From assembly GCA_964588145.1 (NCBI GenBank), contig CAZPNL010000002.1:4014-68013 (forward strand): a stretch of DNA of 64,000 nt, in the 5' to 3' direction. Origin of the DNA: an uncultured Gammaproteobacteria bacterium (lineage in GTDB: Bacteria > Patescibacteriota > Microgenomatia > UBA10105 > UBA927). Shown here one piece after another: positions 15,350-30,155 of this stretch. Made by a program: the position numbers and the translations under genes. The notes under the pieces were generated by a model, which made no database searches, was not told where the DNA came from, and saw only the letters and a program-made list of their open reading frames with translations. How positions within the stretch are numbered: position 1 is the stretch's first letter; each line of letters begins with the position of its first letter.

Positions 15350-15351
15350 AT

Positions 15352-16938
15352 ATGAAGATGTTTAAAAAAATTACTCTACTTTTTATATCAATTATTCTTA
15401 TTTGTATTGCTGTGGCGCCACTGTTTGGAACAGCTTTTATTCCAACGCATGACGGGGAATATCACATCATACGATTTTGGCAATTTTATAAAAATCTAGA
15501 AACTGGCGTCGTGTTTCCACGTTGGGCGCCTGATCTTAACTCCACCTACGGCGTACCACTATTCACGTTTCAATATCCGTTATCAAATTACATCGGAAGC
15601 CTATACCATTTTTTAGGATTTGAGTTTACCCAAAGTGTGAGACTTGTGCTTGCAACAGGATTTATAGTTGCATGCTTAGGTTGCTTCATGTGGCTTCAAT
15701 CAGTTTCAAAAAATGTTCGTATTGCATCTTTTGCAACAAGTATATTTGCCATGGTGCCATACTGGTTTGTCGATCTGTATATACGTGGATCCGTGGGAGA
15801 AGTGCTTGCTATAGCCTGCGTCATGTGGGCTCTGTACTTTCAAGATGCCAAAAAGTATTGGTTACTTGCGCTCATGATTGGGCTACTGGTGATAAGCCAC
15901 AATATTCTGGCATTTGTTTTTGTGCCGATTTTTGCATTAAAATCAATAGTTTTTGATAAAAAGTCACTTCCATGGATTGCTCTTGGCATCCTGTCAGCAT
16001 CTATATTTTGGATTCCGGCACTTGCTGAACGTGCATATGTTTCTGATCTAAGTCCTGTGGATGTGGCAGATCATTTTCCAACTATTTTACAACTCATATT
16101 TCCTACATGGGGAAGTGGTTTTTCCCAGCCTGGCTCTCCTGACGGTGAGATGTCGCAGCAGATTGGAATCATGCCGTTGTTGCTATTGGGTATTTCTTTG
16201 CTAATTCTTTTTAATCAGAAAAGCCAATTCCAAAAAAATTCACATCTGGTATTTTATCTTATTATTGCTTTTGTGAGTATCTTTTTTATGACCGAATATG
16301 CACTTCCCATTTGGAAGTTTTTACCGATGGTAAGCTATATACAATATCCATGGAGATTGATGTCAATATTGCTTCCCGTCACAGCCTATATAGCGGCGAA
16401 CGTATTTGAACGAATGCACGTATCGATTCAGGGAATTATTGCAATTTTGGCATGCGTGCTGTCATTCACATATATGCAGCCTGTAGTTTATCAACCACGG
16501 AGTGATACGCATTATTTAACCCAAGACAATTTTATTCATGGCACATCTTCACTTGGAAATTCATTCTCGACTAAATGGCTACCCTATGTGGGAGTGGTAC
16601 CAGATAAAATTGCAACACTAGAACAACAAGTAGGAGATATAACTATGCTCACACTTGAACCAACTAGGATTGTATTTCAGGTACATACGCCCATCCAAAA
16701 TGAAATGATTCTGCAGAAATCATTTTATCCTGGATGGAAGGCATATATAAATGCTGCGTCTGTTCCTATACATTTTGAAGATGGTCGCATGCACATCTCA
16801 GTTCCAGTAGGGGTGTCTGTTGTCATGGTGCAATTTGAGGATACTCTTCTTCGGACGCTTTCAACTATACTTACGCTCGTCACTTTATCTACAATCATAG
16901 GATCAGGTATACTAGCTGAATATGCGCATAGGATTTGA
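15352..16938 (+). CDS. PTPS-related/COG5617-like polytopic membrane protein (GT-C-like), paralog B
   Basis: 528 aa. 'PTHDGEYHIIRFWQFYKNLETGVVFPRWAPDLNSTYGVPLFTFQYPLSNY' aligns with 11174..12856. The C-terminal 'SFYPGWKAYINAASVPIHFEDG...' is followed by a terminal TM helix. Confidence 0.65.
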   Translation: MKMFKKITLLFISIILICIAVAPLFGTAFIPTHDGEYHIIRFWQFYKNLETGVVFPRWAPDLNSTYGVPLFTFQYPLSNYIGSLYHFLGFEFTQSVRLVLATGFIVACLGCFMWLQSVSKNVRIASFATSIFAMVPYWFVDLYIRGSVGEVLAIACVMWALYFQDAKKYWLLALMIGLLVISHNILAFVFVPIFALKSIVFDKKSLPWIALGILSASIFWIPALAERAYVSDLSPVDVADHFPTILQLIFPTWGSGFSQPGSPDGEMSQQIGIMPLLLLGISLLILFNQKSQFQKNSHLVFYLIIAFVSIFFMTEYALPIWKFLPMVSYIQYPWRLMSILLPVTAYIAANVFERMHVSIQGIIAILACVLSFTYMQPVVYQPRSDTHYLTQDNFIHGTSSLGNSFSTKWLPYVGVVPDKIATLEQQVGDITMLTLEPTRIVFQVHTPIQNEMILQKSFYPGWKAYINAASVPIHFEDGRMHISVPVGVSVVMVQFEDTLLRTLSTILTLVTLSTIIGSGILAEYAHRI

Positions 16939-17971
16939 CGATTCACCGCTTCGCACAGGTCATGCAGGTCGTGGGATTGGGTATTATACCCGGTATCTCC
17001 TAGATGAACTTGAAAAAATTCCTGATATTCAGATAGTCAAATTTTCAGGAGATCCAAACAAATGTGAGGACGTAGATCTCGTGCATATACCATATTTTGA
17101 TGTCTATAAGCGTTCGTTGCCAATTTTAAAACGCTTCAAAACTATTGTCACGATACATGATCTTATTCCTATTGCCTATAATGAACATTTTGCACCCGGC
17201 ATACGTGGGTCGATCAGTTGGCAGATGCAGCGACAATCAGCGCAGGGATGCGCACATATTATTACTGATTCTGATGCATCCAGGCGGGATATAGTACGAT
17301 TTGTAGGAATCAATGAAAAAAAAGTAACGTCCATCCTCCTCGCGCCTGGTCCTCAATTTAGTCGGGCTATATCTGCGGAAAACATGCAAAAAGCTGCGAT
17401 GTATAATTTGCCTGCGTCATATTTTTTATATGTTGGGGATATCAATTGGAATAAAAATGTTTTAGGTCTCATAGATGCGTATGCACAGTTGGATGAAGAA
17501 GTGCGCAATCGGGTACACCTGGTATGTATTGGTGTCGCATTTACCCATACTGAGTTAGCTGAAATGGTGCAAATAAAAGCTCGCATAAAACAATATCAAT
17601 TAGAGGAATTTGTCCATATGCCAGGCAGAGTTGATGATCTGGCGCTTCCTGCAATCTATGCATCCGCACTTTGTCTCGTGCAGCCGTCATTTGCCGAAGG
17701 TTTTGGGTTGCCTGTGCTCGAATCAATGGCAGCAGGGTGCCCTGTTGTCTGCACCACACAAACGAGCCTAGCTGAAATCGCAGGACCAGCAATTACGGTA
17801 AATGCGCAGCCAGATGACATTGCCAGAGGAATGGGCCAAATTTTAGCGCAATCTGAGCTTGAACGTCAAAAAATGATACAATCAGGTATTGCGTGGGCGT
17901 CAGCTTTTACTTGGAAAAAAGTAGCTCAGGAGACAGCCGAGGTATATAAAAAAGCATTGGATCTGATATAG
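16922..17971 (+). CDS. Glycosyltransferase family 4 (GT-B, group 1)
   Basis: 349 aa. 'MRIGFD' start and E-x7-E region '[24 protein letters not shown]'. Confidence 0.85.
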   Translation: MRIGFDDSPLRTGHAGRGIGYYTRYLLDELEKIPDIQIVKFSGDPNKCEDVDLVHIPYFDVYKRSLPILKRFKTIVTIHDLIPIAYNEHFAPGIRGSISWQMQRQSAQGCAHIITDSDASRRDIVRFVGINEKKVTSILLAPGPQFSRAISAENMQKAAMYNLPASYFLYVGDINWNKNVLGLIDAYAQLDEEVRNRVHLVCIGVAFTHTELAEMVQIKARIKQYQLEEFVHMPGRVDDLALPAIYASALCLVQPSFAEGFGLPVLESMAAGCPVVCTTQTSLAEIAGPAITVNAQPDDIARGMGQILAQSELERQKMIQSGIAWASAFTWKKVAQETAEVYKKALDLI

Positions 17972-17974
17972 CGT

Positions 17975-18658
17975 ATGAAAAAATTAAGTATTGTTATCCC
18001 TGTATATAATGAAGAAAATACAATTGGTGATGTCCTGTCAAAAGTTGAATCTGCAGACACTCCTGGCTATAAAAAGGAGATTATCGTTATAAATGATGGT
18101 TCAACTGATGGCACCAAAAAAGTTCTAGAAAAGTGGGTAAAAAAAATCGTTTTTATAGACAAGTCAAATGGCGGTAAGGGCTCAGCCTTGCAAAAAGGAT
18201 TTGAAAAAGCCACAGGGGAAATTGTCCTTATACAAGACGCAGATCTTGAGTATAGTCCGGATGATTATCCAAATCTGCTTAAGCCATTTGAACACGCGCA
18301 GGTTGATGTGGTTTATGGCTCTCGGTTTCTCGGAGCGCATTTATCAACAGTATTTGTGTACACGTTTGGGAACAAACTTGTAACTTTACTGACCAATCTT
18401 TTGTACAACACAAACCTGACAGACATGGAGACAGGCTACAAAGTGTTTAGAAAAAAAGTACTTGATGGGATACGCATACAATCAAAATCATTTGATTTTG
18501 AGCCAGAAATTACTGCAAAGATTTTACGAAGGGGATATCAAATATACGAAATCCCCATTACATATTTTGGACGCAAGTTTTCCGAAGGAAAAAAACTTAC
18601 ATGGAAAGATGGCATAAGTGCCATAATTGCTCTGATTAAATTTAGATTATTAGAATAA
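17975..18658 (+). CDS. Short GT2, polyprenyl-phosphate sugar synthase-like (DPM1/GtrB/ArnC-like)
   Basis: 227 aa. 'LSIVIPVYNEENTIGDVL', 'IIVINDGSTDGT', 'VLIQDADLEYSPDDYPNLL' and 'DMETGYKVFRKKVL'. No obvious C-terminal TM segment. Confidence 0.7.
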   Translation: MKKLSIVIPVYNEENTIGDVLSKVESADTPGYKKEIIVINDGSTDGTKKVLEKWVKKIVFIDKSNGGKGSALQKGFEKATGEIVLIQDADLEYSPDDYPNLLKPFEHAQVDVVYGSRFLGAHLSTVFVYTFGNKLVTLLTNLLYNTNLTDMETGYKVFRKKVLDGIRIQSKSFDFEPEITAKILRRGYQIYEIPITYFGRKFSEGKKLTWKDGISAIIALIKFRLLE

Positions 18659-19917
18659 TGAATATTCTGCATCAAATACACTCGCTAAAAAATTCAAAAC
18701 TAGCTATCAATAGTATATTGCTGTTTGCAGGCAATATGGCGGTAAATGTCTTTGCATACCTATATCATTTGATAGTAGGCAGAATCCTAGGCCCTGTGGG
18801 ATATGGAGAGCTGGCTGCACTTTTATCTCTTTTATATATTGTGAGCGTTCCATCAGAGGTCTTGCGCACTGTATCTATGAAATTTTTTTCTCAAATGTAT
18901 GCTAAGCAGCAGCTTGGTCAGGCAAAAGCCCTCTATATGAGTTTTATAAAATATATTGCAGTTATAGGAGTTATGGGATTTTTTGTATGCATGCCGTTTG
19001 TAGGGTCGTTAAAACAATTTCTCAATATCTCAAATGATACGTATTTTTTGTGGCTCTATTTACTTTTTGCGTTTCAGTTACTAAGCGGACTCAGTGCCGG
19101 TGTGTTATTGGCTTTTCAAAAATTTGTTATGTCAACCTTGACTGCAAATATTATGATTGTCACGAGGCTTGTATTTGGCGTAGTGAGCGCTCCCTTTGGC
19201 GTTGGTGCCTCGCTTGCTGCTACAGCTATAGCTGCCATAGTAGGTATGAGTAGCTATATATTTCCATTTAAAAAATTATTTAGAGATCCCGCTCAAACAG
19301 CACAGTTTACAGCGAAGGATATTATTAAGTACAGTATGCCAACGCTCTTTTCGTTGCTGGGTTTAACTGCCTTATATAGTATGGACATAATACTTGTGAA
19401 ACATTACTTTTCTCCAGTGGATGCTGGCATATACTCCTCGCTTGCAATTCTTGGAAAAGTTATTTTTTTTGCATCCAGCTCCATAGGGTTTGTACTCTTC
19501 CCAGTTATGGCACACAAATGGGAATTAGGTAAGCCCATTCACCGAGAATTTTTTTCCTCCGTAGTAGCCGTTGGCGCACTGTCCTTTGGAATAGCAGGAG
19601 TGTATTTTATATTTCCAGAACTTGTGGTAAATTTACTTTTTGGTGCAAAATTTATGGCTGCTGCAAAATATGTAGGAATATTTGGTGTATTTCTTGCATT
19701 TTTTTCAGTAGCAAGCATACTTATGAATGCATACTTAGCTATTGGAAAAACACGAGTAAGTATATTTATGATTGCTGCCTCTATCGCGCAGATTATAGGT
19801 ATTTCTTATTTACATGCAAATTTAGCACAGGTTATATATATAAATATTTCAGTAGTGGCAATCCTAAGCGTGAGTCTCATGTTGTATTATCCATATGTCA
19901 AAAACAGAATTTCCTAA
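18658..19917 (+). CDS. Wzx-like polysaccharide/oligosaccharide flippase (MOP superfamily)
   Basis: 419 aa with about 12 hydrophobic segments. N-terminal 'NSILLFAGNMAVNVFAYLYHLIVGRILGPVGYGELAALLSL'. TAATG 1-nt overlap with the upstream stop. Confidence 0.65.
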   Translation: MNILHQIHSLKNSKLAINSILLFAGNMAVNVFAYLYHLIVGRILGPVGYGELAALLSLLYIVSVPSEVLRTVSMKFFSQMYAKQQLGQAKALYMSFIKYIAVIGVMGFFVCMPFVGSLKQFLNISNDTYFLWLYLLFAFQLLSGLSAGVLLAFQKFVMSTLTANIMIVTRLVFGVVSAPFGVGASLAATAIAAIVGMSSYIFPFKKLFRDPAQTAQFTAKDIIKYSMPTLFSLLGLTALYSMDIILVKHYFSPVDAGIYSSLAILGKVIFFASSSIGFVLFPVMAHKWELGKPIHREFFSSVVAVGALSFGIAGVYFIFPELVVNLLFGAKFMAAAKYVGIFGVFLAFFSVASILMNAYLAIGKTRVSIFMIAASIAQIIGISYLHANLAQVIYINISVVAILSVSLMLYYPYVKNRIS

Positions 19918-20698
19918 ATTACTTTCCATAATAATGCCTGTCTATAGACAAGAAAAAACTATAGCTGCAAATATTAAAAATATCCTTATTGAATTGGAAA
20001 AATTAGGGGTACAATTTGAACTTATCGTTGTTATAGATGGAAAAATAGACAACAGTTTTGACGAGGCAAAAAAGGTAAAATCTAAACACCTTCAGGTCGT
20101 AGGATATCAAACCAATCATGGCAAAGGATACGCAGTGAGATTTGGCATGTCACATTCCGAAGGTGATATCATAGGCTTTATCGATTCTGGTGGAGATATT
20201 TCTGAAAATGGTATATCCATAATGCTAGAGCATTTTCGCTGGTATAAAGCCGATATTATCATAGGAAGTAAGCGTCATCCTGCCTCTAGAGTGCAATACC
20301 CATGGCAGCGAAAAATATTGTCCTTTGTATATCAGCTGGTTATACAATGGTTATTCGGTCTTAAGGTGAGAGACTCTCAGGTTGGGCTGAAATTTTATAG
20401 ACGTGAGGTACTTGAGGATGTGTTACCAAGGCTGCTAGTAAAGCAATTTGCTTTTGATATAGAGATACTTGCTGTGGCAAATTACTTAGGGTATAAAAAA
20501 ATATTTGAAGCCCCAGTGGATATAGATTTCACAGGTCTTTCCAGCATAAGTTCTAAAAATTTTTGGATTATATCGCTCCGCACACTTTGGGATACGATAG
20601 CAGTTTTTTATCGATTAAAACTATTGAGATATTATGATGAAATAAACAAAAGAAAATGGAAATTTGATCCGGAATTAAATTTTCGTGTAAATATATAA
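19895..20698 (+). CDS. Short GT2, polyprenyl-phosphate sugar synthase-like
   Basis: 267 aa. 'LSIIMPVYRQEKTI', 'LIVVIDGKIDNS', 'GFIDSGGDIS' and 'FAFDIEILAVANYLGY'. Confidence 0.7.
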   Translation: MSKTEFPKLLSIIMPVYRQEKTIAANIKNILIELEKLGVQFELIVVIDGKIDNSFDEAKKVKSKHLQVVGYQTNHGKGYAVRFGMSHSEGDIIGFIDSGGDISENGISIMLEHFRWYKADIIIGSKRHPASRVQYPWQRKILSFVYQLVIQWLFGLKVRDSQVGLKFYRREVLEDVLPRLLVKQFAFDIEILAVANYLGYKKIFEAPVDIDFTGLSSISSKNFWIISLRTLWDTIAVFYRLKLLRYYDEINKRKWKFDPELNFRVNI

Positions 20699-20700
20699 GT

Positions 20701-21726
20701 ATGAAATTTCTTATTACTGGAGGGGCTGGATTTATAGGTACAAATTTAGCATCTAAGCTCATTGGACAGGGACATGATGTAACTATTTTTGATAACTTTT
20801 CTCGTAAAGGGTCACGGTCCAATGCAGAATGGCTTTCCAAGTTGGGAGGAAATGTACGCGTTGCAGAAGGAGATGTCTCAAGGCAGAGTTCCATCAAGCA
20901 ATTGATCGAAGTGATTTCAAATGTAGATAGTATTTTTCATCTCGCAGGCCAAGTGGCTGTAACTACCTCTGTACAGAATCCCAGAATGGATTTTCAAGCA
21001 AATGCTCTGGGTACATTTAACATATTGGAGTCCATGAGAAGGCAAAATTCTCAAGCTATACTGATGTATGCCTCGACAAACAAAGTGTATGGAAATTTAG
21101 AAAATCAACAAATTGTTGAAAAAAACAACAGATACGAATTTGAAAATGGGATAGGAATTTCAGAGCAAACTCCCGTAGACTATTATTCTCCTTACGGGTG
21201 TTCAAAAGGTGTAGGAGATGCGTATGTGCATGACTACGCTCGTGTATATGGGCTGCGAACAATAGTATTTCGCCAATCATGCATATATGGTCCAAGACAG
21301 TTTGGGATAGAAGATCAAGGGTGGCTTGCGTGGTTTATGATTGCATCAATCACAAAAAGACCTATTACCATTTATGGCACAGGCAAACAAGTGCGTGATG
21401 TCCTCTATGTAGATGACCTGATAGATGCATATTTGGCAGCCATAAAAAATATAGAAACAACAAAAGGGCAGATATACAATATCGGGGGAGGAATGCAAAA
21501 TTCATTATCAATCTGGTACGAATTTATTCCACATCTAAAAAAACTTCTTGGAAAAGATATAGCAGTAGATTTTAAGCCTGAGCGCACGGGAGATCAAAAG
21601 GTGTATATCTCAGATATTTCAAAGGCCTCCCGTGATTTTGGTTGGAAGCCAAAGGTTAGGGTAGAATCAGGTCTTGAAAAATTACATACATGGATTACTT
21701 CGCATAAACATCTTTTTACTCCGTGA
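20701..21726 (+). CDS. NAD-dependent sugar-nucleotide epimerase/dehydratase (SDR; CDP-paratose 2-epimerase-like)
   Basis: 341 aa. 'ITGGAGFIGTNLASKLIGQGHDVTIFDNFSRKGSRSNAEWL', 'YASTNKVYG' and 'YGCSKGVGD' (YxxxK). Confidence 0.75.
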   Translation: MKFLITGGAGFIGTNLASKLIGQGHDVTIFDNFSRKGSRSNAEWLSKLGGNVRVAEGDVSRQSSIKQLIEVISNVDSIFHLAGQVAVTTSVQNPRMDFQANALGTFNILESMRRQNSQAILMYASTNKVYGNLENQQIVEKNNRYEFENGIGISEQTPVDYYSPYGCSKGVGDAYVHDYARVYGLRTIVFRQSCIYGPRQFGIEDQGWLAWFMIASITKRPITIYGTGKQVRDVLYVDDLIDAYLAAIKNIETTKGQIYNIGGGMQNSLSIWYEFIPHLKKLLGKDIAVDFKPERTGDQKVYISDISKASRDFGWKPKVRVESGLEKLHTWITSHKHLFTP

Positions 21727-22853
21727 TGAAAATTCTTATACTCAATTGGAAAGACACAAAAAACCCTACGTCTGGCGGGGCAGAGGTGTTGACGCACGAA
21801 CTGGCAAAAGGGTGGGTAGCAATGGGAAATGAAGTAACCATGATAGTGAGCGCGTTTGCAGGGTGTCACTCTGATGAAGTATTTGATGGAATTCGAATTA
21901 TACGTTTAGGCCATAGTGATGTACGGTCTGGAATTGGTTCGGTACATTATCTTGCGGCTCGTAGATATCTCCAAGAGTTTAAGGGAAAGATTGATGTGGT
22001 TGTGGATGAGGTGCATGGTTTTCCATTTTTTACACCATTTTATGTTCATGAGCCAGTTGTGCCTCTCATCTGCGAAGTTGCTGATACGATATGGGCGACG
22101 ATGTTTGGCCCTATTGTGGGACTGCTTGGGAAAATTATCGAATCTCTCTATATACGTGTAATCTATAAAAACGCCCATTGGCTCACCATATCTCCATCTA
22201 CACATGATGATCTTCTTCATATGGGGGTGAAAAATGAAAATATCACAATATTGCCAATGGGGATAACAGTACCTGATAAAATCAAGATTAAGCCAAAGTC
22301 TAAGAAGCCCACAATTATTTTTGTAGGCAGACTCGTTGCCTCAAAAGGAATTGAGGATACGCTAAATGCACTGAAAATCGTAAAAGCGAAGCTGCCAGAC
22401 GTACAGTTGTGGATCATAGGCAGAGGAGATGTGACATACGAAGAGCATCTTCGTTCAGTCTCCAAAGACCTGAATTTAACCCAGAACGTAACATTTTATG
22501 GTTTTGTCAGTGCATCGGAAAAATTTTCACTTATGTCACAAGCACATGTATTGGTTGCTCCATCGGTCAAAGAAGGCTGGGGCTTGATAGTGCCTGAGGC
22601 AGGACTGGTGGGTACGCCAAGCGTTGTGTATCCTACGCACGGATTGAGGGATGTAGTGGAGGATGGAAAAACCGGACATATATGCAGAGAGCAGTCACCA
22701 GAGTCACTTGCAAGTGGTATACTACAATTGTTTGGGGACAATAAGAAGTATGCTCATATACGTGAGGCAGTGATGAAAAAGTCAAAGTCCTACAGTTGGG
22801 CACATACTGTTCGGGTAGGCTATTATGAATTATTAAAACTTTATGAAAAATGA
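21726..22853 (+). CDS. Glycosyltransferase family 4
   Basis: About 375 aa. 'MKILILNWKD...GGAE' and 'PSVKEGWGLIVPEAGLVGTPSVVY'. ATG 21726 overlaps the upstream TGA by 1 nt; the track start at 21723 is a GTG. Confidence 0.8.
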   Translation: MKILILNWKDTKNPTSGGAEVLTHELAKGWVAMGNEVTMIVSAFAGCHSDEVFDGIRIIRLGHSDVRSGIGSVHYLAARRYLQEFKGKIDVVVDEVHGFPFFTPFYVHEPVVPLICEVADTIWATMFGPIVGLLGKIIESLYIRVIYKNAHWLTISPSTHDDLLHMGVKNENITILPMGITVPDKIKIKPKSKKPTIIFVGRLVASKGIEDTLNALKIVKAKLPDVQLWIIGRGDVTYEEHLRSVSKDLNLTQNVTFYGFVSASEKFSLMSQAHVLVAPSVKEGWGLIVPEAGLVGTPSVVYPTHGLRDVVEDGKTGHICREQSPESLASGILQLFGDNKKYAHIREAVMKKSKSYSWAHTVRVGYYELLKLYEK

Positions 22854-24015
22854 TTCTGCATTTATACCATTATCCAAGCCAGCTATAGGAAAAGAGGAAA
22901 AACGAGCCGTCCTTAAGGCGCTCGATTCTGGCTGGATCACCCTTGGACCAAAAACTGCTGAATTTGAAGATCTCTTTAAGGCATTTATAGGTACTAAACA
23001 TGCCGTAGGTGTTTCCTCATGGACAGGAGGAATGCATGTTGTATTATCCTCGCTTGGCATTGGACCAGGTGATGAGGTGATTGCTCCTGTATTTACCTTT
23101 GCGGCAACCATAAATCCCGTTATCCAGGTTGGAGCAAAACCAGTACTTGTAGATATTGACCGTGATACATTTCTGATTGATGTGCAAAAGGTAGAAAAGG
23201 CCATCACCAAAAAAACCAAAGCTATTATACCCGTGCATTATGCCGGACAAGCAGTTGACATGGATGCTCTGAAAGATATCGCAAAACGATATAATCTAAA
23301 AATTATCGAGGATGCGGCACATGCTGTTGGTACGGTGTATAAAGGTGCGCAGATTGGTACACATGGAGATGCTGTAGTATATTCATTTCACCCTATCAAA
23401 AATATGACCACAGGGGATGGTGGGATGATTGTGACAAATGATGCAGAATTGGATACGAAAGCCAGGTTATATAGGTTGCATGGAATGAATAAAGAAGCAT
23501 GGAAGAGGCTTGATAAATCAGGCAATTGGTACTACGAGATAGTCGTTCCTGGATTTAAGTACAACATGACGGATATTTCTGCCTCAATTGGTATAGAGCA
23601 GCTGAAAAAACTCTCAACATTCATACTGCATCGTACAAAGATAGCCGCTTTATACACAAAGGCTTTTGTCAAAATTCCAGAAATTACATCACCCAAGGTT
23701 TTGCCCTATGGAGTGCATGCATGGAACTTGTATTCAGTTTTGCTGGATGTAGATGCGCTGACAATAAGCCGAAATGATTTTATCGAAGAGCTCAAAAAGA
23801 GAAATATCGGAACAAGTGTATACTTTACTCCACTACACATGCACCCATATTATCAAAAAGCATTGGGCTATAATGAGGGGGATTTTCCAAATAGTGAGTG
23901 GGTATACCAGCGTCTCCTTTGTTTACCAATGTCAAATGCCATTACTATGCGTGAGGCAAAAACAGTGATACACGAAGTCACACAACTGATCAGTGAGTAC
24001 AAGAAACATGGATGA
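22843..24015 (+). CDS. DegT/DnrJ/EryC1-family PLP aminotransferase, ArnB-like
   Basis: 390 aa. 'IPLSKPAIGKEEKRAVLKALDSGWITLGPK', 'IIPVHYAGQAVDMDAL', 'IIEDAAHAVG' and 'FHPIKNMTTGDGG' (PLP lysine). Confidence 0.85.
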   Translation: MKNDSAFIPLSKPAIGKEEKRAVLKALDSGWITLGPKTAEFEDLFKAFIGTKHAVGVSSWTGGMHVVLSSLGIGPGDEVIAPVFTFAATINPVIQVGAKPVLVDIDRDTFLIDVQKVEKAITKKTKAIIPVHYAGQAVDMDALKDIAKRYNLKIIEDAAHAVGTVYKGAQIGTHGDAVVYSFHPIKNMTTGDGGMIVTNDAELDTKARLYRLHGMNKEAWKRLDKSGNWYYEIVVPGFKYNMTDISASIGIEQLKKLSTFILHRTKIAALYTKAFVKIPEITSPKVLPYGVHAWNLYSVLLDVDALTISRNDFIEELKKRNIGTSVYFTPLHMHPYYQKALGYNEGDFPNSEWVYQRLLCLPMSNAITMREAKTVIHEVTQLISEYKKHG

Positions 24016-24910
24016 TGCATTTTTATCACAATTTTCTCCACCACTGGGTTTCCTACAGTCATCACTTCCACCTGGGAGCATAAGGCAGGATTTTACCCAG
24101 GACATACAAAAACGCTTTAGCAGTGGCACAGTCGTGTCTGTAAACAAGGATACTGAGCAGGTTGGGTTGGCAATATATACTCTATCTGAATTTGATAGTT
24201 CAATATTTCACAATAAATTTGCTATTATCTCTCATCTTCTAGCATCCTCTGATAATGATAAAAAAGAAGTCCTTGAGAAGCTCATAGAATGTTTAAAAGC
24301 GAAGGGTTTTACATATGCTGTAGTAAGGATTCCTACAGATTTTGCATGGATTATGATGCTTTCAAGATTTAAGTTTCAAATGACAGATACGGTTACATAT
24401 CTGACGCATACTCTCCAGGATATTTCTTTGGATATTGAAGATAAAATTTTGCCCTGCACACCACAAGATGAATCACAGGCGCTTGTGATATCGCAAGGAA
24501 GCTTTTGTTATGGTAGATTTTACAATGATCCAGATCTTAAGAGAGAGGATGTAGACGCGCTATATCAGCAATGGGTTGCCAATGCATTTGGTGGTCAAGT
24601 ATGTGATGCCGTGTATGGTTATTTTGAGATGCATGTCTTACTTGGGTTTGTGGCAATTAAAAAAATACCAATACATGGACTCGCGCAAAATACAGTTATG
24701 AGTGTCGAGCTTGTGTGTGTTGATAAAAAAGCACGAGGTTTGGGTATAGGAAAAAAACTTATTCACTACGCGCTGCAACAGATGAAAAAAATGAACACAA
24801 CTATTGCCTTGATTGACACGCAGGGAAACAATATCGCAGCTCTGAATACTTATATATCTTGTGGATTTCGCCCAGGTGCACAAATGATGTCATTTCGACT
24901 GCTACTTTAG
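24008..24910 (+). CDS. GNAT-family N-acetyltransferase (WecD-like two-domain layout)
   Basis: About 300 aa. The C-terminal GNAT core is 'VELVCVDKKARGLGIGKKLIHYAL' and 'NNIAALNTYISCGF'. ATG 24008 is preferred over GTG 23993. Confidence 0.7.
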   Translation: MDDAFLSQFSPPLGFLQSSLPPGSIRQDFTQDIQKRFSSGTVVSVNKDTEQVGLAIYTLSEFDSSIFHNKFAIISHLLASSDNDKKEVLEKLIECLKAKGFTYAVVRIPTDFAWIMMLSRFKFQMTDTVTYLTHTLQDISLDIEDKILPCTPQDESQALVISQGSFCYGRFYNDPDLKREDVDALYQQWVANAFGGQVCDAVYGYFEMHVLLGFVAIKKIPIHGLAQNTVMSVELVCVDKKARGLGIGKKLIHYALQQMKKMNTTIALIDTQGNNIAALNTYISCGFRPGAQMMSFRLLL

Positions 24911-24911: not shown

Positions 24912-26390
24912 ATGAATATAGTACTCATCTGTATCATTCCTATTCTTGCATTTATATTGGAATCTTATCCGCGATTTATAAATAGGAGATTTGGGGTTGA
25001 TGTCTGGACACATCTTCTCTATCTACAGGAGTTTCATAGGCAGAAGAGGTTACCTAGAAATATCAGTAATGGTTTCATCATAACAGGTGACTATGATTAT
25101 CCGCCTATTTTTATTTATATATTATCTCTTTTTCCATTTAAATTAGTAGAAAAGTACGAATTTCTTTTTTCACCAGTCGTTGATAGTATATTTATGATGC
25201 TCTTTGGTGTGATCACATATGTTTTTACCGGTAGCATCGTAACGACACTCCTTACGCAAGGAATGTATATATTGACGCCAATTATTGCCATAGAAAACTC
25301 CAGTGCGACACCCCGGTCGCTTGGGTATGCACTCTTTGCTTTTATAGCGGTCTTTGAGTTTCTCTATATGGGATCAGGAAACACGCTCTATCTATATCTG
25401 TCGATATTTTTGGGCGTATGGATATTTCTCGCACATAGATTTTCTACGCAAGGATATTTATTTTTTTCTATAGTATTTACCCTGATTGAGCGAAGAATCG
25501 AATATGCATTCGTATTTGTCATTTCTCTTTTGCTTACCATTTTTATATCGCGAGGATATTATTTAAAGGTACTATCTGGTCATTTGGGAAATTTGCGCTT
25601 TTGGAAAGCAAATATTCAATATAGATTTGCACATCAGGTAAAGGGCTTGGTAGCAGAAAAAAACCCTAGTGATTTCGTCTTATATCTATATAGGTTTTTT
25701 CTCAAATTCCCCCCATTTGTGCTGGCTGTTACGAGCCCGTGGATGATTCTTGCAATTAGCCTTTCGCTGATTCCGCCTGTTCTAGAAGGATTTTATCTAC
25801 GCATGTTTTGGCTTGTCGGATTTTCATACGCGCTATCACTTTTTACGCTTTGGATACCTCAACTCAGGTTTCTGGGAGAGGGACAACGGTATCTAGAGCT
25901 TACGGCTTTTCCAACCGCCTTGTTGTCAGCAGTTGCATTTGAGCGACTCCTTGAGGGTAGTTTGAGTGTGATTGTCATCCCTGCTGGTTTAGTTGTAGCT
26001 ATACTGTGCCTTGTCACGATACTTGTAATTCAGAAAAAAGGAATAATTGATGAAAAGATGCGAACTGTTACTCCTGAGATTGAGCATATGTTTGCATATC
26101 TAAAGGACTTAAAGAAAAAGCCCAGACTGCTTTGTATTCCACATCAGATGACAACTAGTACCATTTATCATACAGGGTGTGAAGTACTTGTGAATGCAGA
26201 CTATACAAACATCATAATGATTTCTGATATATATCCGGTGCTTCGTAAGCCAATCCTGGAAATCATGCATGAATTTGAGCTCGATGAGATCTTATTAAAT
26301 CAAAATTACGCAGCTATCGAAGATCTCCATCTCAAAAAATATATAGTTATAAAGGAATCAGGACCGTTTGTCCTTTTGAAACTCAAGTAA
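24912..26390 (+). CDS. Uncharacterised polytopic membrane protein, paralog A (family not recognised)
   Basis: 492 aa with about 10 hydrophobic segments and a C-terminal domain of about 120 aa that looks soluble. The N-terminal 'ILESYPRFINRRFGVDVWTHL...GDYDYPPIF' matches the neighbouring minus-strand gene. Confidence 0.7.
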   Translation: MNIVLICIIPILAFILESYPRFINRRFGVDVWTHLLYLQEFHRQKRLPRNISNGFIITGDYDYPPIFIYILSLFPFKLVEKYEFLFSPVVDSIFMMLFGVITYVFTGSIVTTLLTQGMYILTPIIAIENSSATPRSLGYALFAFIAVFEFLYMGSGNTLYLYLSIFLGVWIFLAHRFSTQGYLFFSIVFTLIERRIEYAFVFVISLLLTIFISRGYYLKVLSGHLGNLRFWKANIQYRFAHQVKGLVAEKNPSDFVLYLYRFFLKFPPFVLAVTSPWMILAISLSLIPPVLEGFYLRMFWLVGFSYALSLFTLWIPQLRFLGEGQRYLELTAFPTALLSAVAFERLLEGSLSVIVIPAGLVVAILCLVTILVIQKKGIIDEKMRTVTPEIEHMFAYLKDLKKKPRLLCIPHQMTTSTIYHTGCEVLVNADYTNIIMISDIYPVLRKPILEIMHEFELDEILLNQNYAAIEDLHLKKYIVIKESGPFVLLKLK

Positions 26391-27875
26391 ACAAATATCT
26401 CCATACTTGGCAATCTGTTTCATCTTTTGCGCGCCAATCTCTGCTTTTGTCGCAAATGATTCCCGCAGTAAGATATGCGTGAGGTTGTATTCTTTTCTTA
26501 GGTCTGTGAGAGGCCTTGTCAGGAGTGGGTATATGCCCCTGAGCTTCATCAATCCCTGATTATCGGCATTTACCAGTACATCCGCTTTTGTATTGTATAT
26601 AGTCATAGTAGTGATTTGATGGGGTATGCAGATGATGCGTGGTTGTACCTTTAGAGTGTTAATAAATTCATACATAGAGTGAAGGTCACCCGTAAGTGTT
26701 CTGTTTTGGTCTTTGAGTATGGCTTTGCTTTGCACAATGAGAATAAGTGAGAGGTTTGCGAGAAGCAATCCAAAGGCGCCAATCATAACTATAGTAGAAT
26801 ATTGGGTATTTATGAGTGTGTATATGCCAAAAGCCGACAAAATAGCTGTTGGTACTGTTGCCATTTCCAAGTATCTTTGCCCTTCTCCAATAGGTATAAG
26901 TCTTTTTATTGATAATACGACAATGGCCAGTCCAAAAAAGAAGAGAATCCATATGGAAAATTTTTCAAAGAGAAGATTACCTGCAAACGGACTATAAGAA
27001 CTAGTTAATCTACTTAATTGCAAATAGAGAGGTGCAAGCAGCCAAACGTTTGTTCCCAAAAGTCCTATGGGAGAAAATTTTGCGAGTACATAGTACACGA
27101 TCCCTATAAAATCAATTTGTTTCGTCGTTTTTTGAATTCCTCGTATTTGATGTGCAAAGCGGTATGGATAGTATATAACCCAAAAATATATATTGTAGAG
27201 ATGTCCTGTTAGCACGCGCTTGTAGTATCCATTTGTCACGATAATTGCAGTGATAAGTCCGGATAAAAACATGCCTGTATAGAGCAGATTGCGTTCGTAC
27301 AAAGTGAAAAACAGAGTAGCAAAGAGAAACGATTGGGTCGCAAATCTATGAGATAAAAATATCAAGACAGAAAAAATATAAGAAAACACTAAGTACTCTA
27401 TTTTTGGTGAAACAGAATAGAGGACAAGGGGGTAAAATGCCAGTGTAAAATTGAGGTACCCAAAGGAACGTGGTGTCAGATAGCTATTTTCTAGTGCTAC
27501 TAGAGGAGTAAGCATATATATTCCTTGGCTCAAAAGGGCGATAATAGGGTTACCGGTAATTTGTAGTGCGATAACATATACGATGAAACATTGTATGGCG
27601 TCTATAAAGGGCGCTATAAAGCCTTGTAATTGCAGAAGTTTGGCTTTTGATACGAAAGACAATATAAACGGAAAAAGTGGTGGGTAATCAAAATACCCGT
27701 CAATGATAAACTGGTGAGTAATTTTTCCTGGAATTTTATGACCATTCTTACGTATATGGTCAGTTTCAGTGAGTCTCGTCCATACGTCTACTCCAAACAG
27801 TCTGTTGAAAAACCGCGGATATGCCTGCAGCAAAAACGAAAGACATGGTATGATGATGGCATAAATATGAGACAT
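26358..27875 (-). CDS. Uncharacterised polytopic membrane protein, paralog B (family not recognised)
   Basis: 'LLQAYPRFFNRLFGVDVWTRL...DGYFDYPPLF'. Start set to the ATG at 27875 (MSHIYAIIIP) because it aligns with M1 of paralog A (MNIVLICIIP); ATG 27902 is the alternative. Confidence 0.7.
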   Translation of the reverse strand: MSHIYAIIIPCLSFLLQAYPRFFNRLFGVDVWTRLTETDHIRKNGHKIPGKITHQFIIDGYFDYPPLFPFILSFVSKAKLLQLQGFIAPFIDAIQCFIVYVIALQITGNPIIALLSQGIYMLTPLVALENSYLTPRSFGYLNFTLAFYPLVLYSVSPKIEYLVFSYIFSVLIFLSHRFATQSFLFATLFFTLYERNLLYTGMFLSGLITAIIVTNGYYKRVLTGHLYNIYFWVIYYPYRFAHQIRGIQKTTKQIDFIGIVYYVLAKFSPIGLLGTNVWLLAPLYLQLSRLTSSYSPFAGNLLFEKFSIWILFFFGLAIVVLSIKRLIPIGEGQRYLEMATVPTAILSAFGIYTLINTQYSTIVMIGAFGLLLANLSLILIVQSKAILKDQNRTLTGDLHSMYEFINTLKVQPRIICIPHQITTMTIYNTKADVLVNADNQGLMKLRGIYPLLTRPLTDLRKEYNLTHILLRESFATKAEIGAQKMKQIAKYGDICLLEFQKDKRS

Positions 27876-29201
27876 AATTTCTCGGTGCACTGGAAAAATC
27901 ATGTAGTGCTTGGAGCAGCAATCCTACTTATTTTTCTTGGAATTTTTCTCAGGCATCATAATTATAGAACAATTCCTAGACACGGTGCGACTTTTGATGA
28001 ATTTGCTTGGACGTGGCTTGGTATAAACCTGATACAAACGGGTATGCCAAAGTCATGGTCTCCTCACGCTCAATACTCTAATAGAGAACACTTGATTTAT
28101 CAAGGGGCAGCATTTTGGATTGTCTATCCGTATCTGGAACATCCACCACTTTTTGGACTCATTGCTGGAGCCTCCTCACTCGTAAATGGTGCTACGGATA
28201 TGTATACCGTGACACTGCGCACGATGAGACCATTGTCGTTACTGCTTGGAGCCCTCACGCTCATATTATTAGCCATACTTGTCAACAGAATATATGGAAG
28301 AAATGTAATGCTTATAGTCTTAGCAATAGCATCAGTATCACCTACGATTGTAGTGGGCTCACGTATACTACAAAACGAAAACTTTTTTATCCCCATGTGG
28401 CTCCTGGGACTCATAGCGCTCCACACATATATAAAGTCAAATACTATCCGTTGGTATATGGTTTCTCTTTTTTTGGCGTTACTGCTGCCACTAGCAAAGG
28501 TGCCCTGGGTAGTTGCTGGCGCATCGTATGCGTGGATATTATTTGTCCACAAAAGATATACGTTATTTATGCTTATGTGTGCTATGCCCGCTGTTTCGGT
28601 GGGTCTTTATGCACTATATGGTCATCTCTATGATGCAAGGCTATTTGACGGACTACAGCAGTTACAACTGGCGCGGTATGATCTAAAATTTTCATCACTG
28701 TACTCACTGATAACTGATCCACTTATCGTTGACCGGAGATATCTGGATGGATGGATTTATGTAGGCTTTATGAGCATTGTGATGCTTATGCGAAATGCAA
28801 AAAAACATATATTTATCATTATTCCATTTTTTACGTATTTAATAGCCTATCTTGCAGCTATACCAGATGAGCCGCTTCATGGCTGGTATAGGTTTCCGTT
28901 GTATCCATTTTTATGTGTGAGTGCAGGAGTATTTATCTACCAAGAGTTTATAAAGCCAAGCATGGCAAGTGTGCTGTGGATATTGCTAAGTGGACTATCA
29001 TTCCTATCAGAGCCATATATGCGGCAGTATGGGTTTTCTTTACCAATTCTCAGGGTGTTTCTCATTGGCGTAGTAGGAGTTCTCCTTTATTTGTCTAGGG
29101 AATGTGCAAATGAGAGTAGGGGTAGGGGAATGCTTATGACGTTATTTAGTTTAAGCATCATCGGATCAGCTATAGCCTCTTTTGTTTATATAGACTACTA
29201 A
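27867..29201 (+). CDS. Polytopic membrane protein, GT39/PMT_2-like (GT-C-like)
   Basis: 'HGATFDEFAWTWLGINLIQTGMPKSWSP' and 'YLEHPPLFGLIAG'. First ATG is at 27867; in-frame GTGs at 27885 and 27906 are possible. The track start at 27714 would overlap the divergent gene by about 190 nt. Confidence 0.55.
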   Translation: MRHNFSVHWKNHVVLGAAILLIFLGIFLRHHNYRTIPRHGATFDEFAWTWLGINLIQTGMPKSWSPHAQYSNREHLIYQGAAFWIVYPYLEHPPLFGLIAGASSLVNGATDMYTVTLRTMRPLSLLLGALTLILLAILVNRIYGRNVMLIVLAIASVSPTIVVGSRILQNENFFIPMWLLGLIALHTYIKSNTIRWYMVSLFLALLLPLAKVPWVVAGASYAWILFVHKRYTLFMLMCAMPAVSVGLYALYGHLYDARLFDGLQQLQLARYDLKFSSLYSLITDPLIVDRRYLDGWIYVGFMSIVMLMRNAKKHIFIIIPFFTYLIAYLAAIPDEPLHGWYRFPLYPFLCVSAGVFIYQEFIKPSMASVLWILLSGLSFLSEPYMRQYGFSLPILRVFLIGVVGVLLYLSRECANESRGRGMLMTLFSLSIIGSAIASFVYIDY

Positions 29202-30154: not shown

Positions 30155-30155
30155 A

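Follow-up and report, generated by a model that had tools for sequence, protein, structure and literature searches.

The enzyme behind polymyxin resistance in Gram-negative bacteria, the aminotransferase ArnB, belongs to the Arn pathway (Ugd, ArnA, ArnB, ArnC, ArnD, ArnE/F, ArnT), in which the amine is N-acylated by a formyltransferase before transfer. In the WecE/WecD (RffA/RffC) pathway to the dTDP-Fuc4NAc of enterobacterial common antigen, neighboring genes encode a 4-aminotransferase and a two-domain GNAT by which the newly formed amine is acetylated, and the gene for the enzyme that provides the keto sugar lies elsewhere. The PseB/PseC/PseH and PglF/PglE/PglD pathways lead to UDP-2,4-diacetamido-2,4,6-trideoxyhexose by way of a keto sugar, an aminotransferase, and an N-acetyltransferase. 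Here, we analyzed a stretch of 64,000 nt (the window) from an ultra-small, LPS-less CPR bacterium, in which the gene for an aminotransferase resembling ArnB overlaps a GNAT gene. Their sequences suggest that the most likely product of the two encoded enzymes is an N-acetylated 4-amino sugar destined for a surface glycan and that the aminotransferase-GNAT module may be a swappable N-acetyl amino-sugar unit.

Gene content of the locus and its recurrence

Four co-directional open reading frames between positions 20701 and 24910 form one tightly overlapping operon on the forward strand. They encode a CDP-tyvelose 2-epimerase-like (TyvE-like) SDR (20701 to 21726, 341 aa), a GT4 glycosyltransferase (21723 to 22853, 376 aa), a DegT-family, ArnB/PseC-like sugar 4-aminotransferase (22843 to 24015, 390 aa), and a tandem two-domain GNAT N-acetyltransferase (24008 to 24910, with the longest frame beginning with GTG at 23993). 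The SDR and GT4 genes overlap by 4 nt and the GT4 and aminotransferase genes by 11 nt; the 8-nt overlap between the aminotransferase and GNAT genes that was described in the initial annotation runs from the ATG at 24008 to the aminotransferase stop at 24015. Pfam matches of all four are far beyond chance (DegT_DnrJ_EryC1, 438.6 bits, E value of 2.6e-131; SDR PF16363, 183 bits; GT4 Glycos_transf_1 PF00534, 122 bits; GNAT Acetyltransf_1, 45.5 bits).

Upstream on the same strand are a candidate Wzx-type (MOP) flippase of 419 aa (18658 to 19917; Pfam Polysacc_synt, 36 bits; ~12 hydrophobic segments by hydropathy) and a short soluble GT2 resembling Dpm1, ArnC, and PpgS (19895 to 20698; Pfam GT2, 67 bits). 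The GT2, whose sequence makes it a candidate polyprenyl-phosphate sugar synthase, has no transmembrane helix and shares 27% identity with the catalytic domain of E. coli ArnC; its top NCBIfam match is ArnC, at 45 bits versus a cut-off of 529. The short GT2s at 17975 and 19895 had been called ArnC-like, and ArnC, AglJ, and PpgS are indeed among their top NCBIfam matches, all below cut-off. Downstream is a polytopic membrane protein of an unnamed GT-C-like family (24912 to 26390, forward strand; no Pfam match; 7 hydrophobic segments), which has a 55% identical ortholog in locus L105 and a paralog at 26358 to 27902 on the reverse strand. This second family member is a conserved convergent partner of the GNAT, since its orthologs (45 to 51%) directly follow the GNAT on the opposite strand in L023, L024, L106, and L115. 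GT-C genes are numerous in the window, as had been noted, with PMT_2 matches at 4945, 6188, 7825, 9487, 27714, and 54613, YfhO at 2506, and an AftD-like gene at 35735.

The order Wzx, Dpm1/ArnC-like GT2, GT4, aminotransferase, GNAT, and candidate STT3-like GT-C, which we call the cassette, is found in 8 other loci. A homolog of the Wzx candidate lies ahead of the GT2 in L022/L104, L023, L106, L115, and genome G288, and orthologs of the GT2 (45 to 68% identical) are present in the cassette loci and in G288. A GT4 ortholog (31 to 42%) lies immediately upstream of the aminotransferase in each of the 7 other cassette loci for which upstream sequence is available, and the aminotransferase adjoins the GNAT in 5 of the 6 cassette loci that have downstream sequence.

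The SDR at 20701, which the initial annotation had counted with the sugar module, is neither a dehydratase nor a decarboxylase and lies outside this conserved cassette. It matches CDP-tyvelose 2-epimerases over its full length (Thermodesulfatator atlanticus TaTyvE, 9rl0, 349.5 bits; Salmonella RfbE, 1orr, 326.7 bits; next best PDB match, 142 bits) and shares their catalytic Thr/Tyr/Lys; we therefore rejected it as the keto-sugar-forming enzyme. Set against the TyvE residues described in PMC13098431, it keeps the TNK segment, the Tyr/Lys pair, and the Arg, whereas VAM is VAV (Met85 to Val) and YDQGW is EDQGW (Tyr203 of the cytosine-closing loop to Glu). CDP-glucose synthase, CDP-glucose dehydratase, and an RfbH-type enzyme were not found in the source genome. 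A TyvE-like SDR occupies only 1 of 6 resolved GT2-to-GT4 junctions, and of 400 phylum genomes, the 21 that encode such an SDR all lack a cassette-type aminotransferase. By sequence, the SDR at 20701 would be an epimerase acting at C2 that belongs to the locus backbone rather than a step of the aminotransferase-GNAT module.

Affinities of the aminotransferase and the acetyltransferase

The motifs SGWITLGPK, IIPVHYAG, IEDAAHA, and FHPIKN, quoted earlier as ArnB-like, all occur in the aminotransferase translation. Among solved relatives, ArnB scores highest (331 bits), followed by the perosamine synthase Per (239), PseC (188), and WecE (149). With NCBIfam models, the protein scores 406 bits for ArnB, which fails the equivalog cut-off of 631, and 380 bits for PseC; three of its cassette kin score slightly higher with the PseC model than with the ArnB model. 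Scores with the two WecE models are 247 and 203 bits (cut-offs, 375 and 435), and that with DesI is 184 bits. In 93 of 160 fetched related loci, ArnC and ArnA-domain homologs lie beside an aminotransferase that is 41 to 54% identical to this one.

In a careful 49-row tree, the cassette clade (support, 100/99) groups with 20 ArnBs from arn operons (86/70 and 92/83), with PseC outside. At discriminating columns, the cassette has the ArnB state and not the PseC state in 6 of 6, in small sets of 3 ArnB, 2 PseC, and 5 cassette sequences. In a quick 58-row tree that includes fusion relatives, the cassette aminotransferases form one branch of an unresolved five-way polytomy, alongside arn-operon ArnB, PseC, fusions with a 6vo6-like SDR, and PglF-like fusions. 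An AU test does not reject a clade of cassette plus PseC sequences (P = 0.195). In both trees, the aminotransferase falls outside the WecE clade. With broad sampling, the cassette aminotransferases thus appear to be a lineage of their own, of which this protein is the founding member: ArnB is the nearest characterized enzyme, as had been expected, but the cassette is not nested within ArnB. Firm clustering with 4,6-dideoxyhexose or 3-amino-sugar enzymes, which the initial annotation had named along with lipid A genes as evidence against its proposal, was not seen.

The GNAT is a remote relative of WecD. All 40 of its relatives match WecD models, its family profile matches WecD with an E value of 1.6e-23, and superposition of WecD and its AF2 model (pLDDT, 95.3) gives a TM score of 0.84. 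The relative P0021, which lies inside the cassette clade of aminotransferases, is a natural aminotransferase-GNAT fusion. These data support a WecD-like GNAT that is functionally tied to the aminotransferase. The arrangement had been likened to WecE-WecD, which is true of the adjacency but not of the order, since in E. coli, wecD (rffC) precedes wecE. Because ArnB is the nearest characterized relative and the WecD-like GNAT is coupled to the aminotransferase by adjacency and fusion, an N-acetylated 4-amino sugar, as originally proposed, is the natural reading and is well supported as the probable product.

Candidate sugars and sources of the keto sugar

Our leading single candidate for the sugar is an Ara4N-like pentose, a choice that we make tentatively. 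The protein families, the coupling of the genes, the conservation of the cassette, and the gene inventory are observed directly; from them we infer the nucleotide, the position of the amine (C-4), the pentose skeleton, where the keto sugar comes from, and how the product is delivered, as follows. The PLP-dependent aminotransferase would convert a nucleotide-activated 4-keto sugar to a 4-amino sugar, the leading candidate for the keto sugar being the ArnB substrate, UDP-4-keto-pentose derived from UDP-glucuronate (Ugd and a UXS-type decarboxylase). The GNAT would then acetylate the new amine with acetyl-CoA, giving UDP-4-acetamido-4-deoxy-L-arabinose, with acetylation in place of ArnA formylation. 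The GT2, GT4, Wzx flippase, and candidate STT3-like GT-C may build a polyprenyl-linked intermediate that contains this sugar, or may transport the sugar itself in polyprenyl-linked form, for delivery to a surface acceptor. LpxC and LpxA over cut-off were not found in the source genome (88.8% complete), which argues, in line with the initial annotation, for an acceptor other than lipid A.

Ugd, RmlA/B, and a deformylase are absent from the window, as had been stated; Ugd, rmlA-C-B-D, and a GMD-like gene are on contig C5. The UXS-type UDP-glucuronate decarboxylase identified earlier (41287 to 42228, forward strand) matches human UXS1 at 339 bits with aligned STSEIYG and YDEAKR motifs, and it adjoins a GalE-type UDP-sugar 4-epimerase (42578 to 43546, forward strand; TIGR01179, 417.7 bits; cut-off, 262.3). 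It had been asked whether this decarboxylase is ArnA-like: no other protein of the genome is closer to the dehydrogenase domain of E. coli ArnA, yet the identity is only 25%, and the enzyme is of the ordinary UXS type. UXS enzymes normally retain and reduce the 4-keto intermediate, and that the sole UDP-glucuronate decarboxylase is of this type is evidence counter to the pentose. UXS, which lies 17 kb downstream of the cassette in the window and 3.7 kb upstream in L023, occurs in 85 of 400 phylum genomes. All five cassette genomes have UXS and a Ugd-family gene, and all five also have RmlB, so co-occurrence does not separate the pentose and hexose routes. Among the papers listed by full-text literature searches, none dealt with N-acetyl-Ara4N or with Ara4N or Arn genes in Patescibacteria; co-mentions concerned the glycolipid or LPS biology of E. 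coli or Yersinia, or carbohydrate chemistry.

A 4-acetamido-4,6-dideoxyhexose of a type like Qui4NAc, Fuc4NAc, or N-acetylperosamine, with free dTDP-4-keto-6-deoxy-D-glucose from RmlB, or else the GMD product, as the starting material, is somewhat doubtful but nearly as likely as the Ara4N-like pentose. This would be a WecE/WecD-like pathway run by a different aminotransferase lineage. No dedicated keto-sugar-forming enzyme is consistently found in cassette loci, so that the parsimonious choice of substrate is an intermediate of housekeeping metabolism that is released freely, and the rml and GMD-like genes on C5 could supply one. The only named relatives of the GNAT are WecDs, which act on dTDP-Fuc4N, and a WecE/WecD-like pair on contig C29 likewise has no dehydratase of its own. 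However, the cassette aminotransferase is outside the WecE clade and below the WecE cut-offs, the genome already encodes two aminotransferases of the WecE type that do exceed a cut-off (C29, 595 bits; C1, 392 bits), and the characterized members of the surrounding clade, ArnB and PseC, act on UDP-sugars. The window, L023, and L024 also have no rml genes, except for an RmlC-like ORF beside CDP genes in L024.

It is improbable that an SDR instead oxidizes an intact NDP-sugar directly, giving a 4-amino-4-deoxy sugar. Among the best 120 long relatives of the aminotransferase, 72 are fusions with an SDR like 6vo6, which we take to be the C4-dehydrogenase Cj1427 (aminotransferase part, 45 to 50% identical). 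In the Patescibacteria genome G250, whose related gene set we also count in favor of the pentose, such an SDR fused to an ArnB-like aminotransferase is encoded in a row with a GT2 that shares 41% identity with E. coli ArnC, a GNAT of the WecD type, and a pair of PMT_2 GT-Cs, and the source genome encodes a 42% homolog of that SDR (C1:28064-29113). Yet 6vo6-like SDRs are found in none of 3 other cassette genomes. Another candidate, a divergent extended SDR (29198 to 30172, reverse strand; top PDB matches GalE-like, 75 bits), has a 61% ortholog beside the cassette GT-C only in L024/G408, which is 1 of 5 genomes searched. The adjacent TyvE-like enzyme could yield a 2-amino sugar if it released a 2-keto intermediate, through which TyvE chemistry passes, but according to PMC13098431, TyvE binds its NAD tightly and its intermediate is transient; moreover, no other cassette has a TyvE-like enzyme, and 21 genomes have one but not the aminotransferase.

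Least likely is a 2,4-diacetamido-2,4,6-trideoxyhexose of the bacillosamine or Pse-precursor type from UDP-GlcNAc. In its favor, the PseC model score is near that of ArnB, the AU test leaves room for PseC affinity, and 9 of the best 120 long relatives are fused to a PseB/PglF-like dehydratase (aminotransferase parts, 47 to 55% identical; the most similar long relative, P0179, at 55%, is among these fusions; the precomputed Pfam list gives GNAT families for 4 of the 9) and another to NeuB and a CMP-transferase. However, neither NeuB nor a PseB/PglF-type 4,6-dehydratase was found in the 88.8% complete genome (top Polysacc_synt_2 match, 54 bits versus 336 in the positive control G053), and only 1 of 5 cassette genomes (G407) has the dehydratase.

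Comparison with the Pse/Pgl, Wec, and Arn pathways

The cassette shares with the Pse and Pgl pathways the succession from keto sugar to aminotransferase to N-acetyltransferase, and natural dehydratase-aminotransferase-GNAT fusions occur among its relatives. It differs in that bona fide PseC references are only 36 to 40% identical to its aminotransferase and that the dehydratase, NeuB, and the CMP-transferase were not found in the genome. Like WecE and WecD, it pairs adjacent genes for an aminotransferase and a two-domain GNAT and would draw on a keto sugar made by an enzyme encoded elsewhere. In contrast to that system, the gene order is reversed, the aminotransferase is of another clade, and the GNAT is ~75 residues longer than WecD and far under the WecD cut-offs (52 versus 219 bits); the genuine WecE and WecD-like pair of this genome is the separate one on C29.

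Compared with the Arn pathway, the genome has no detected ArnA (neither the dehydrogenase nor the formyltransferase), ArnD deformylase, ArnE/F, ArnT homolog, or lipid A genes, and the aminotransferase, which scores under the cut-off of the ArnB model, represents a separate lineage. What the two have in common is a DegT aminotransferase (43% identity between the cassette protein and E. coli ArnB), an amine that, judging from the genes, would be N-acylated before transfer, a Dpm1/ArnC-family GT2 with a candidate GT-C membrane transferase nearby, and Ugd and a UDP-glucuronate decarboxylase in the same genome. In the cassette, a GNAT would attach an acetyl group where the Arn pathway relies on a formyltransferase; the cassette further includes a GT4 and a Wzx-type flippase, and its candidate GT-C comes from another, unnamed family.

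The aminotransferase operon and the cassette in which it recurs

Four genes on the plus strand overlap at their ends. They encode an extended SDR (20701 to 21726), a GT4 glycosyltransferase with no specific family assignment from NCBIfam (21723 to 22853), a DegT/DnrJ/EryC1 aminotransferase (22843 to 24015; Pfam PF01041, 438.6 bits), and a protein whose C-terminal domain is a GNAT (24008 to 24910), all recognized by their Pfam matches. The flanking genes are on the same strand, with the preceding gene ending at 20698 and the following gene starting at 24912. All four of the ArnB-like motifs quoted in the initial annotation are found in the translation of the aminotransferase gene, and given a GNAT start at the ATG at 24008, the aminotransferase and GNAT genes do overlap by the 8 nt that it reported. 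The window also contains numerous GT2, GT4, GT-C, and methyltransferase genes, together with genes for a UDP-glucuronate decarboxylase (UXS), GalE, ManC, and a Bac_transf initiating transferase, and as a whole it is a glycosylation island. A 208-aa ORF at 48346 to 48972 has an N-terminal GT4 domain (Glyco_transf_4) only and lies just upstream of a 380-aa GT4 (49038 to 50180); it may be what remains of a glycosyltransferase or one part of a split one.

With the aminotransferase as the query, we fetched 80 species-genome loci and 80 metagenome loci and named the neighboring genes by BLAST against the window proteins and the E. coli Arn and Wec proteins. Ninety-three of the 160 loci are Arn type, carrying an ArnC homologue and an ArnA-domain homologue beside an aminotransferase that is 41 to 54% identical to that of the window; many of the remaining 67 are contigs too short to judge. 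Nine loci with eight distinct aminotransferases, 51 to 64% identical to that of the window, are of a different, cassette type (L022/L104, L105, L023, L024, L106, L109, L110, and L115, of which L022 is labelled Levybacteria and L023 Patescibacteria). The order of genes in the cassette is Wzx, GT2 (45 to 56% identical to the GT2 at 19895), GT4 (31 to 42% identical to the GT4 at 21723), aminotransferase, and GNAT, and at the 3' end there is a membrane protein on the opposite strand that is 45 to 51% identical to that encoded at 26358 to 27902. The GT4 gene is immediately upstream of the aminotransferase gene in all seven other loci that have upstream sequence, and the GNAT gene comes next after it in four of the five other loci that have downstream sequence (five of six when the window is counted). 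At L105:1514-4145, the closest cassette relative (aminotransferase 62% identical), a PylC-like ATP-grasp enzyme is in the GNAT position and is followed by an SDR and a metallophosphoesterase, which suggests that a different N-acyl group would be placed on the same amino sugar there.

A genome of the same family, G288, has eleven genes that are syntenic with window positions 11045 to 22853 (locus L262, C1:14058-33578). The order Wzx-GT2-TyvE-GT4 is kept (identities of 68% for GT2, 55% for the TyvE-like SDR, and 32% for GT4), and after the GT4 there is a different module, SDR/DegT/SDR/SDR. Based on gene order, we read these loci as a conserved, putative glycan-assembly backbone with an exchangeable sugar-synthesis module, which in the window would be the aminotransferase and the GNAT. 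The difference between G288 and the window is a probable instance of module swapping in a hypervariable glycan locus.

Affiliation of the aminotransferase and of its GNAT partner

The closest solved relatives of the aminotransferase are four ArnB entries (331, 327, 327, and 251 bits in a PDB search), followed by perosamine synthases (239 bits), QdtB (203 bits), PseC 2fn6 (188 bits), and WecE 4piw (149 bits). Its sequence identity with E. coli ArnB is 43%, and the PLP lysine (in FHPIKN) and conserved aspartate (in IEDAAHA) expected of DegT enzymes of fold type I align between the two. It scores 406.1 bits against the NCBIfam ArnB model (NF008658; cutoff, 631) and 380 bits against the PseC model (cutoff, 423.5), below the cutoff in both cases, and 259 bits against LegC, 247 and 203 bits against two WecE models, and 184 bits against DesI. 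The ArnB cutoff is also missed by all five non-enteric ArnBs from arn operons (375 to 580 bits, compared with 739.5 for E. coli ArnB). The cassette kin of the window protein score 366 to 386 bits with the ArnB model and 382 to 404 bits with the PseC model. Since genuine non-enteric arn-operon ArnBs reach 348 to 387 bits on the PseC model, we dropped these scores as a means of separating ArnB from PseC.

The position of the aminotransferase was examined in three trees: a quick tree of 66 rows, for which every third of the 93 arn-context aminotransferases was taken; a careful tree of 49 rows, which kept 20 ArnBs after five duplicate ArnBs had been removed, together with L192 and L203, whose branches were the longest; and a quick tree of 58 rows, to which the aminotransferase domains of long fusion proteins were added and from which nine further ArnB rows were omitted. 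The PseC references were L184 (574 bits, above the PseC cutoff) and the protein of the sampled genome G053, whose neighbors are PseB-like and a cytidylyltransferase. In the careful tree, the cassette clade is monophyletic (100/99) and joins the arn-operon ArnBs and a protein from the Patescibacteria genome G250 (86/70; 92/83), with the two PseC references outside the cassette-plus-ArnB group. A clade of cassette proteins and PseC was not rejected by the AU test (delta lnL, 11.85; p = 0.195). In the 58-row tree, the cassette clade (98) forms a polytomy with four other lineages, namely, ArnB (92), PseC, the fusions with an extended SDR resembling PDB 6vo6 (98), and a group holding the PglF-like fusions. 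The phylogenetic placement that the initial annotation had proposed as a check thus gives a grouping with ArnB at the 86/70 node of the careful tree, where the AU test also allows an affinity with PseC, and a separate lineage in the polytomy once the fusion relatives are added. The term "ArnB-like" is apt for the nearest characterized enzyme, but the cassette aminotransferases are their own lineage, a picture with which the HMM scores agree.

A word-based search with the GNAT matched the GNAT alone, making it a near-orphan by that measure; a full phmmer search recovered 285 representatives with E ≤ 1e-10, of which 5 pass E ≤ 1e-30, the query counted. We aligned 40 GNAT sequences (38 of the 39 best relatives, the query, and a paralogue on contig C29 of the same genome), all of which match WecD models below the cutoff, and the top PDB match of the family profile is WecD (E = 1.6e-23). 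The AF2 model (pLDDT 95.3) predicts a tandem GNAT, with an N-terminal GNAT-like domain and a catalytic GNAT. Foldseek aligns this model with WecD 2fs5_A (E = 4.7e-14; TM 0.84, WecD normalised; rmsd, 3.5 Å), and two other tandem GNATs, VipF and the mycothiol synthase MshD, rank as high as WecD. The window GNAT thus shares with WecD its two-domain architecture and its partnership with a sugar 4-aminotransferase, but it scores far under the curated WecD cutoffs (52.2 versus 219 bits for NF008212 and 27.8 versus 195 bits for TIGR02382).

The one relative left out of the GNAT alignment, P0021, is a 618-aa protein whose aminotransferase part is within the cassette clade and whose C terminus matches the window GNAT, and this fusion provides a Rosetta-stone link between the two activities. 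Longer fusions were surveyed among the best 120 relatives of at least 684 residues. Seventy-two of these join a 6vo6-like SDR to an aminotransferase, as in G250, and their source names span Patescibacteria, Chloroflexota, Woesearchaeota, and Omnitrophota. The remainder comprise 33 tandem aminotransferases, 9 fusions of a PseB/PglF-like dehydratase to an aminotransferase, 5 proteins with other N-terminal domains, and 1 aminotransferase-NeuB-cytidylyltransferase protein.

The G250 protein is a 726-aa SDR-aminotransferase fusion (L209:10676-12856, which is G250:C1:38675-40855) at the head of a five-gene row that reaches L209:17780. Next in the row come a PMT_2 GT-C, a GT2 (41% identity to E. coli ArnC), a WecD-like GNAT, and then a further PMT_2 GT-C. 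The aminotransferase part of the fusion is 49% identical to that of the window and 46% identical to E. coli ArnB, and the closest PDB entry to its SDR domain is 6vo6 (165 bits), presumably Cj1427, a GDP-heptose C4-dehydrogenase. Judged by gene content, this row is a predicted Arn-like system using a GNAT. Elsewhere in G250 (C70:2060-4018), a UXS homologue (53 to 60% identical) lies in two pieces about 1 kb apart in one 665-aa frame, which may hold an inserted domain or intein. The window's own genome encodes a stand-alone 349-aa SDR (C1:28064-29113) that is 42% identical to the aminotransferase-fused SDR domain of G250.

Candidate sources of the keto sugar and candidate products

The SDR at 20701 to 21726, which the initial annotation grouped with the aminotransferase and the GNAT, matches the two solved CDP-tyvelose 2-epimerases (TyvE) over its full length (9rl0, 349.5 bits; 1orr, 326.7 bits; next match, 142 bits). 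It keeps the catalytic Thr-Asn-Lys segment, Tyr, and Lys (STNKVYG and YSPYGCSK aligned), and it differs from TyvE at Met85, which is Val, and at Tyr203, which is Glu. According to PMC13098431, from which the residue roles are taken, Tyr203 is one of two loop residues closing over the cytosine. We ruled out this SDR as a dehydratase or decarboxylase, as it is TyvE-like and not RmlB-, UXS-, or ArnA-like. Its distribution also rules it out as the partner of the aminotransferase: the TyvE-like gene is in 21 of 400 sampled genomes of the phylum, none of them among the 4 that hold a related aminotransferase, and of six resolved GT2-GT4 junctions, only that of the window holds it. The TyvE-like gene of the window is not set in a CDP-3,6-dideoxyhexose pathway (RfbF, RfbG, RfbH, and RfbS). 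An RfbF query gave no tblastn match in the 88.8% complete genome, whose four nucleotidyltransferases are RmlA-, GalU-, ManC-, and GlmU-like. The genes next to the cassette at L024:2691-6345 encode RfbF, an SDR resembling CDP-glucose dehydratase, a bona fide RfbH (608 bits), and an RmlC-like protein. CDP-dideoxyhexose genes are thus found there, and the window has the TyvE-like gene and none of these.

The ugd and rmlAB genes, noted initially as missing from the window, are both present on contig C5 of the same assembly (1.55 Mb, 139 contigs), in a sugar-nucleotide supply cluster with the order rmlA-rmlC-rmlB-rmlD-ugd-GMD-like (L012, C5:12775-19345). The UDP-glucose 6-dehydrogenase of this cluster scores 525 bits with the TuaD model, below its cutoff of 700, and 458 bits with an NDP-sugar dehydrogenase model (cutoff, 189.8). 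In two other cassette genomes (G406:C23 and G408:C9), UXS, Ugd, and RmlB are encoded within ~6 kb of one another. The question of whether the decarboxylase at 41287 to 42228 is UXS type or ArnA-like is answered in favor of an ordinary UXS: it matches human UXS1 with 339 bits, with STSEIYG and YDEAKR aligned, and it scores far below the cutoffs of the ArnA (NF005998, 78 bits) and U4kpxs (NF008872, 96 bits) models. At 25% identity, it is nevertheless as close as the genome comes to the ArnA dehydrogenase domain; a tblastn search with E. coli ArnD and ArnT found no match there. The genome also encodes a genuine WecE (595 bits; cutoff, 375) whose gene overlaps that of a WecD-like GNAT (96 bits) at C29:12098-15102 (L015), beside WecB-like (179 bits; cutoff, 210) and Fcl-like (469 bits; cutoff, 500) proteins that are both below cutoff. 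This small genome therefore has a second aminotransferase/GNAT pair, one of the classical kind, and a further WecE-type aminotransferase (392 bits) is encoded at about C1:83.3-84.4 kb.

The cassette has no constant companion among the keto-sugar-forming enzymes. Of three long loci, two have a UXS-type gene near the cassette: it lies 3.7 kb upstream in L023 and 17 kb downstream in the window. The type of SDR encoded at 29198 to 30172 is beside the cassette in the window and L024 only and is in one of five cassette genomes searched, the PseB type is in one of five, and the 6vo6-like SDR, found in the window's genome and in G250, is in none of three other cassette genomes. We consequently dropped the idea of a dedicated keto-sugar enzyme common to all cassette genomes. 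UXS, a Ugd-family gene, and RmlB are each in all five (UXS is in 85 of the 400 sampled phylum genomes), so that co-occurrence was also dropped as a means of discriminating pentose from hexose.

The product that we tentatively predict is an Ara4NAc-type pentose, formed from an ArnB-type UDP-4-keto-pentose substrate. This is favored because the aminotransferase is far more similar to ArnB than to other solved enzymes and groups with ArnB in the careful tree, because the cassette proteins are in the ArnB state at six of six ArnB-versus-PseC discriminating columns (small sequence sets), and because UDP-sugars are the substrates of the characterized members of the surrounding clade; the nearness of UXS genes in two of the three long loci and the parallel with G250 point in the same direction. 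Against a pentose are the absence of ArnA from the genome, the usual retention of the 4-keto intermediate by UXS, and the polytomy in which the cassette clade lies. A 4-acetamido-4,6-dideoxyhexose is a somewhat less probable product; in its favor, RmlB would make a free 4-keto sugar available in all five cassette genomes, and the only named relatives of the GNAT act on dTDP-4,6-dideoxyhexose. Another, directly oxidised sugar is improbable: SDRs resembling the presumed C4-dehydrogenase are commonly fused to related aminotransferases, but they are patchy among the cassette genomes. Least likely is a diacetamido-trideoxyhexose, since in the window's genome no NeuB was found and the best candidate for a PseB/PglF-type dehydratase reaches only 54 bits (336 in the positive control G053), even though the aminotransferase part of one PseB/PglF-like fusion (P0179) is 55% identical to that of the window and four of the nine such fusions (about 1015 to 1022 aa) list GNAT families. 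The odds that are left fall to other sugars.

Delivery and relation to Arn systems

The GT2s encoded at 17975 and 19895 are short, soluble, Dpm1/ArnC-like proteins without TM helices that are 27% identical to the ArnC catalytic domain, and the membrane proteins encoded at 24912 and 26358 match no Pfam family. The sugar could be delivered by an Arn-like route through a polyprenyl-phosphate monosaccharide. Alternatively, the GT4 would build it into a polyprenyl-diphosphate oligosaccharide that Wzx would flip and a putative GT-C would transfer; the presence of Wzx and of an invariably adjacent GT4 favors this second route. Lipid A, doubted as the acceptor in the initial annotation, finds no support in the 88.8% complete genome, in which LpxC has no match and the best LpxA match is 33.9 bits (cutoff, 231).

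Taken together, it is possible, if rather unlikely in every particular, that these LPS-less Patescibacteria make an undescribed UDP-4-acetamido-4-deoxy-L-arabinose, in which the 4-keto-pentose would come from a UXS-type decarboxylase without ArnA, a WecD-like GNAT would add the cap in place of a formyl group, and a putative STT3-like GT-C would transfer the sugar to a protein or cell-wall acceptor. In a full-text literature search, judged largely from titles and abstract openings, no paper was found that deals with N-acetylated Ara4N or, for Patescibacteria, with Ara4N or Arn genes; the listed papers on 4-acetamido-4-deoxy sugars and arabinose concern E. coli or Yersinia glycolipid and LPS biology and carbohydrate chemistry, none of them CPR bacteria. 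In sum, the cassette aminotransferases are a lineage apart, here paired with a WecD-like GNAT in a swappable module of a CPR glycan locus.

Should the sugar prove to be an ordinary 4,6-dideoxyhexose, the module would be unremarkable, one of the variable sugar modules of a hypervariable glycan locus. To our knowledge, Ara4N chemistry has been met almost exclusively on lipid A, where the modification underlies resistance to polymyxin. An ArnB sister lineage in bacteria that lack lipid A, coupled there to an acetyltransferase, a Wzx flippase, and a putative oligosaccharyltransferase-like enzyme, would show this chemistry to be a general surface-glycan tool that is not specific to LPS, and it would give a first handle on the products of the very large CPR glycosylation islands. 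In contrast to arn operons, the window does not encode ArnA, ArnC, ArnD, or ArnT beside its aminotransferase, as judged by the Pfam and NCBIfam assignments of the window genes; if the pentose prediction is true, an Arn-like pathway would have been rebuilt here from different parts for a different target.
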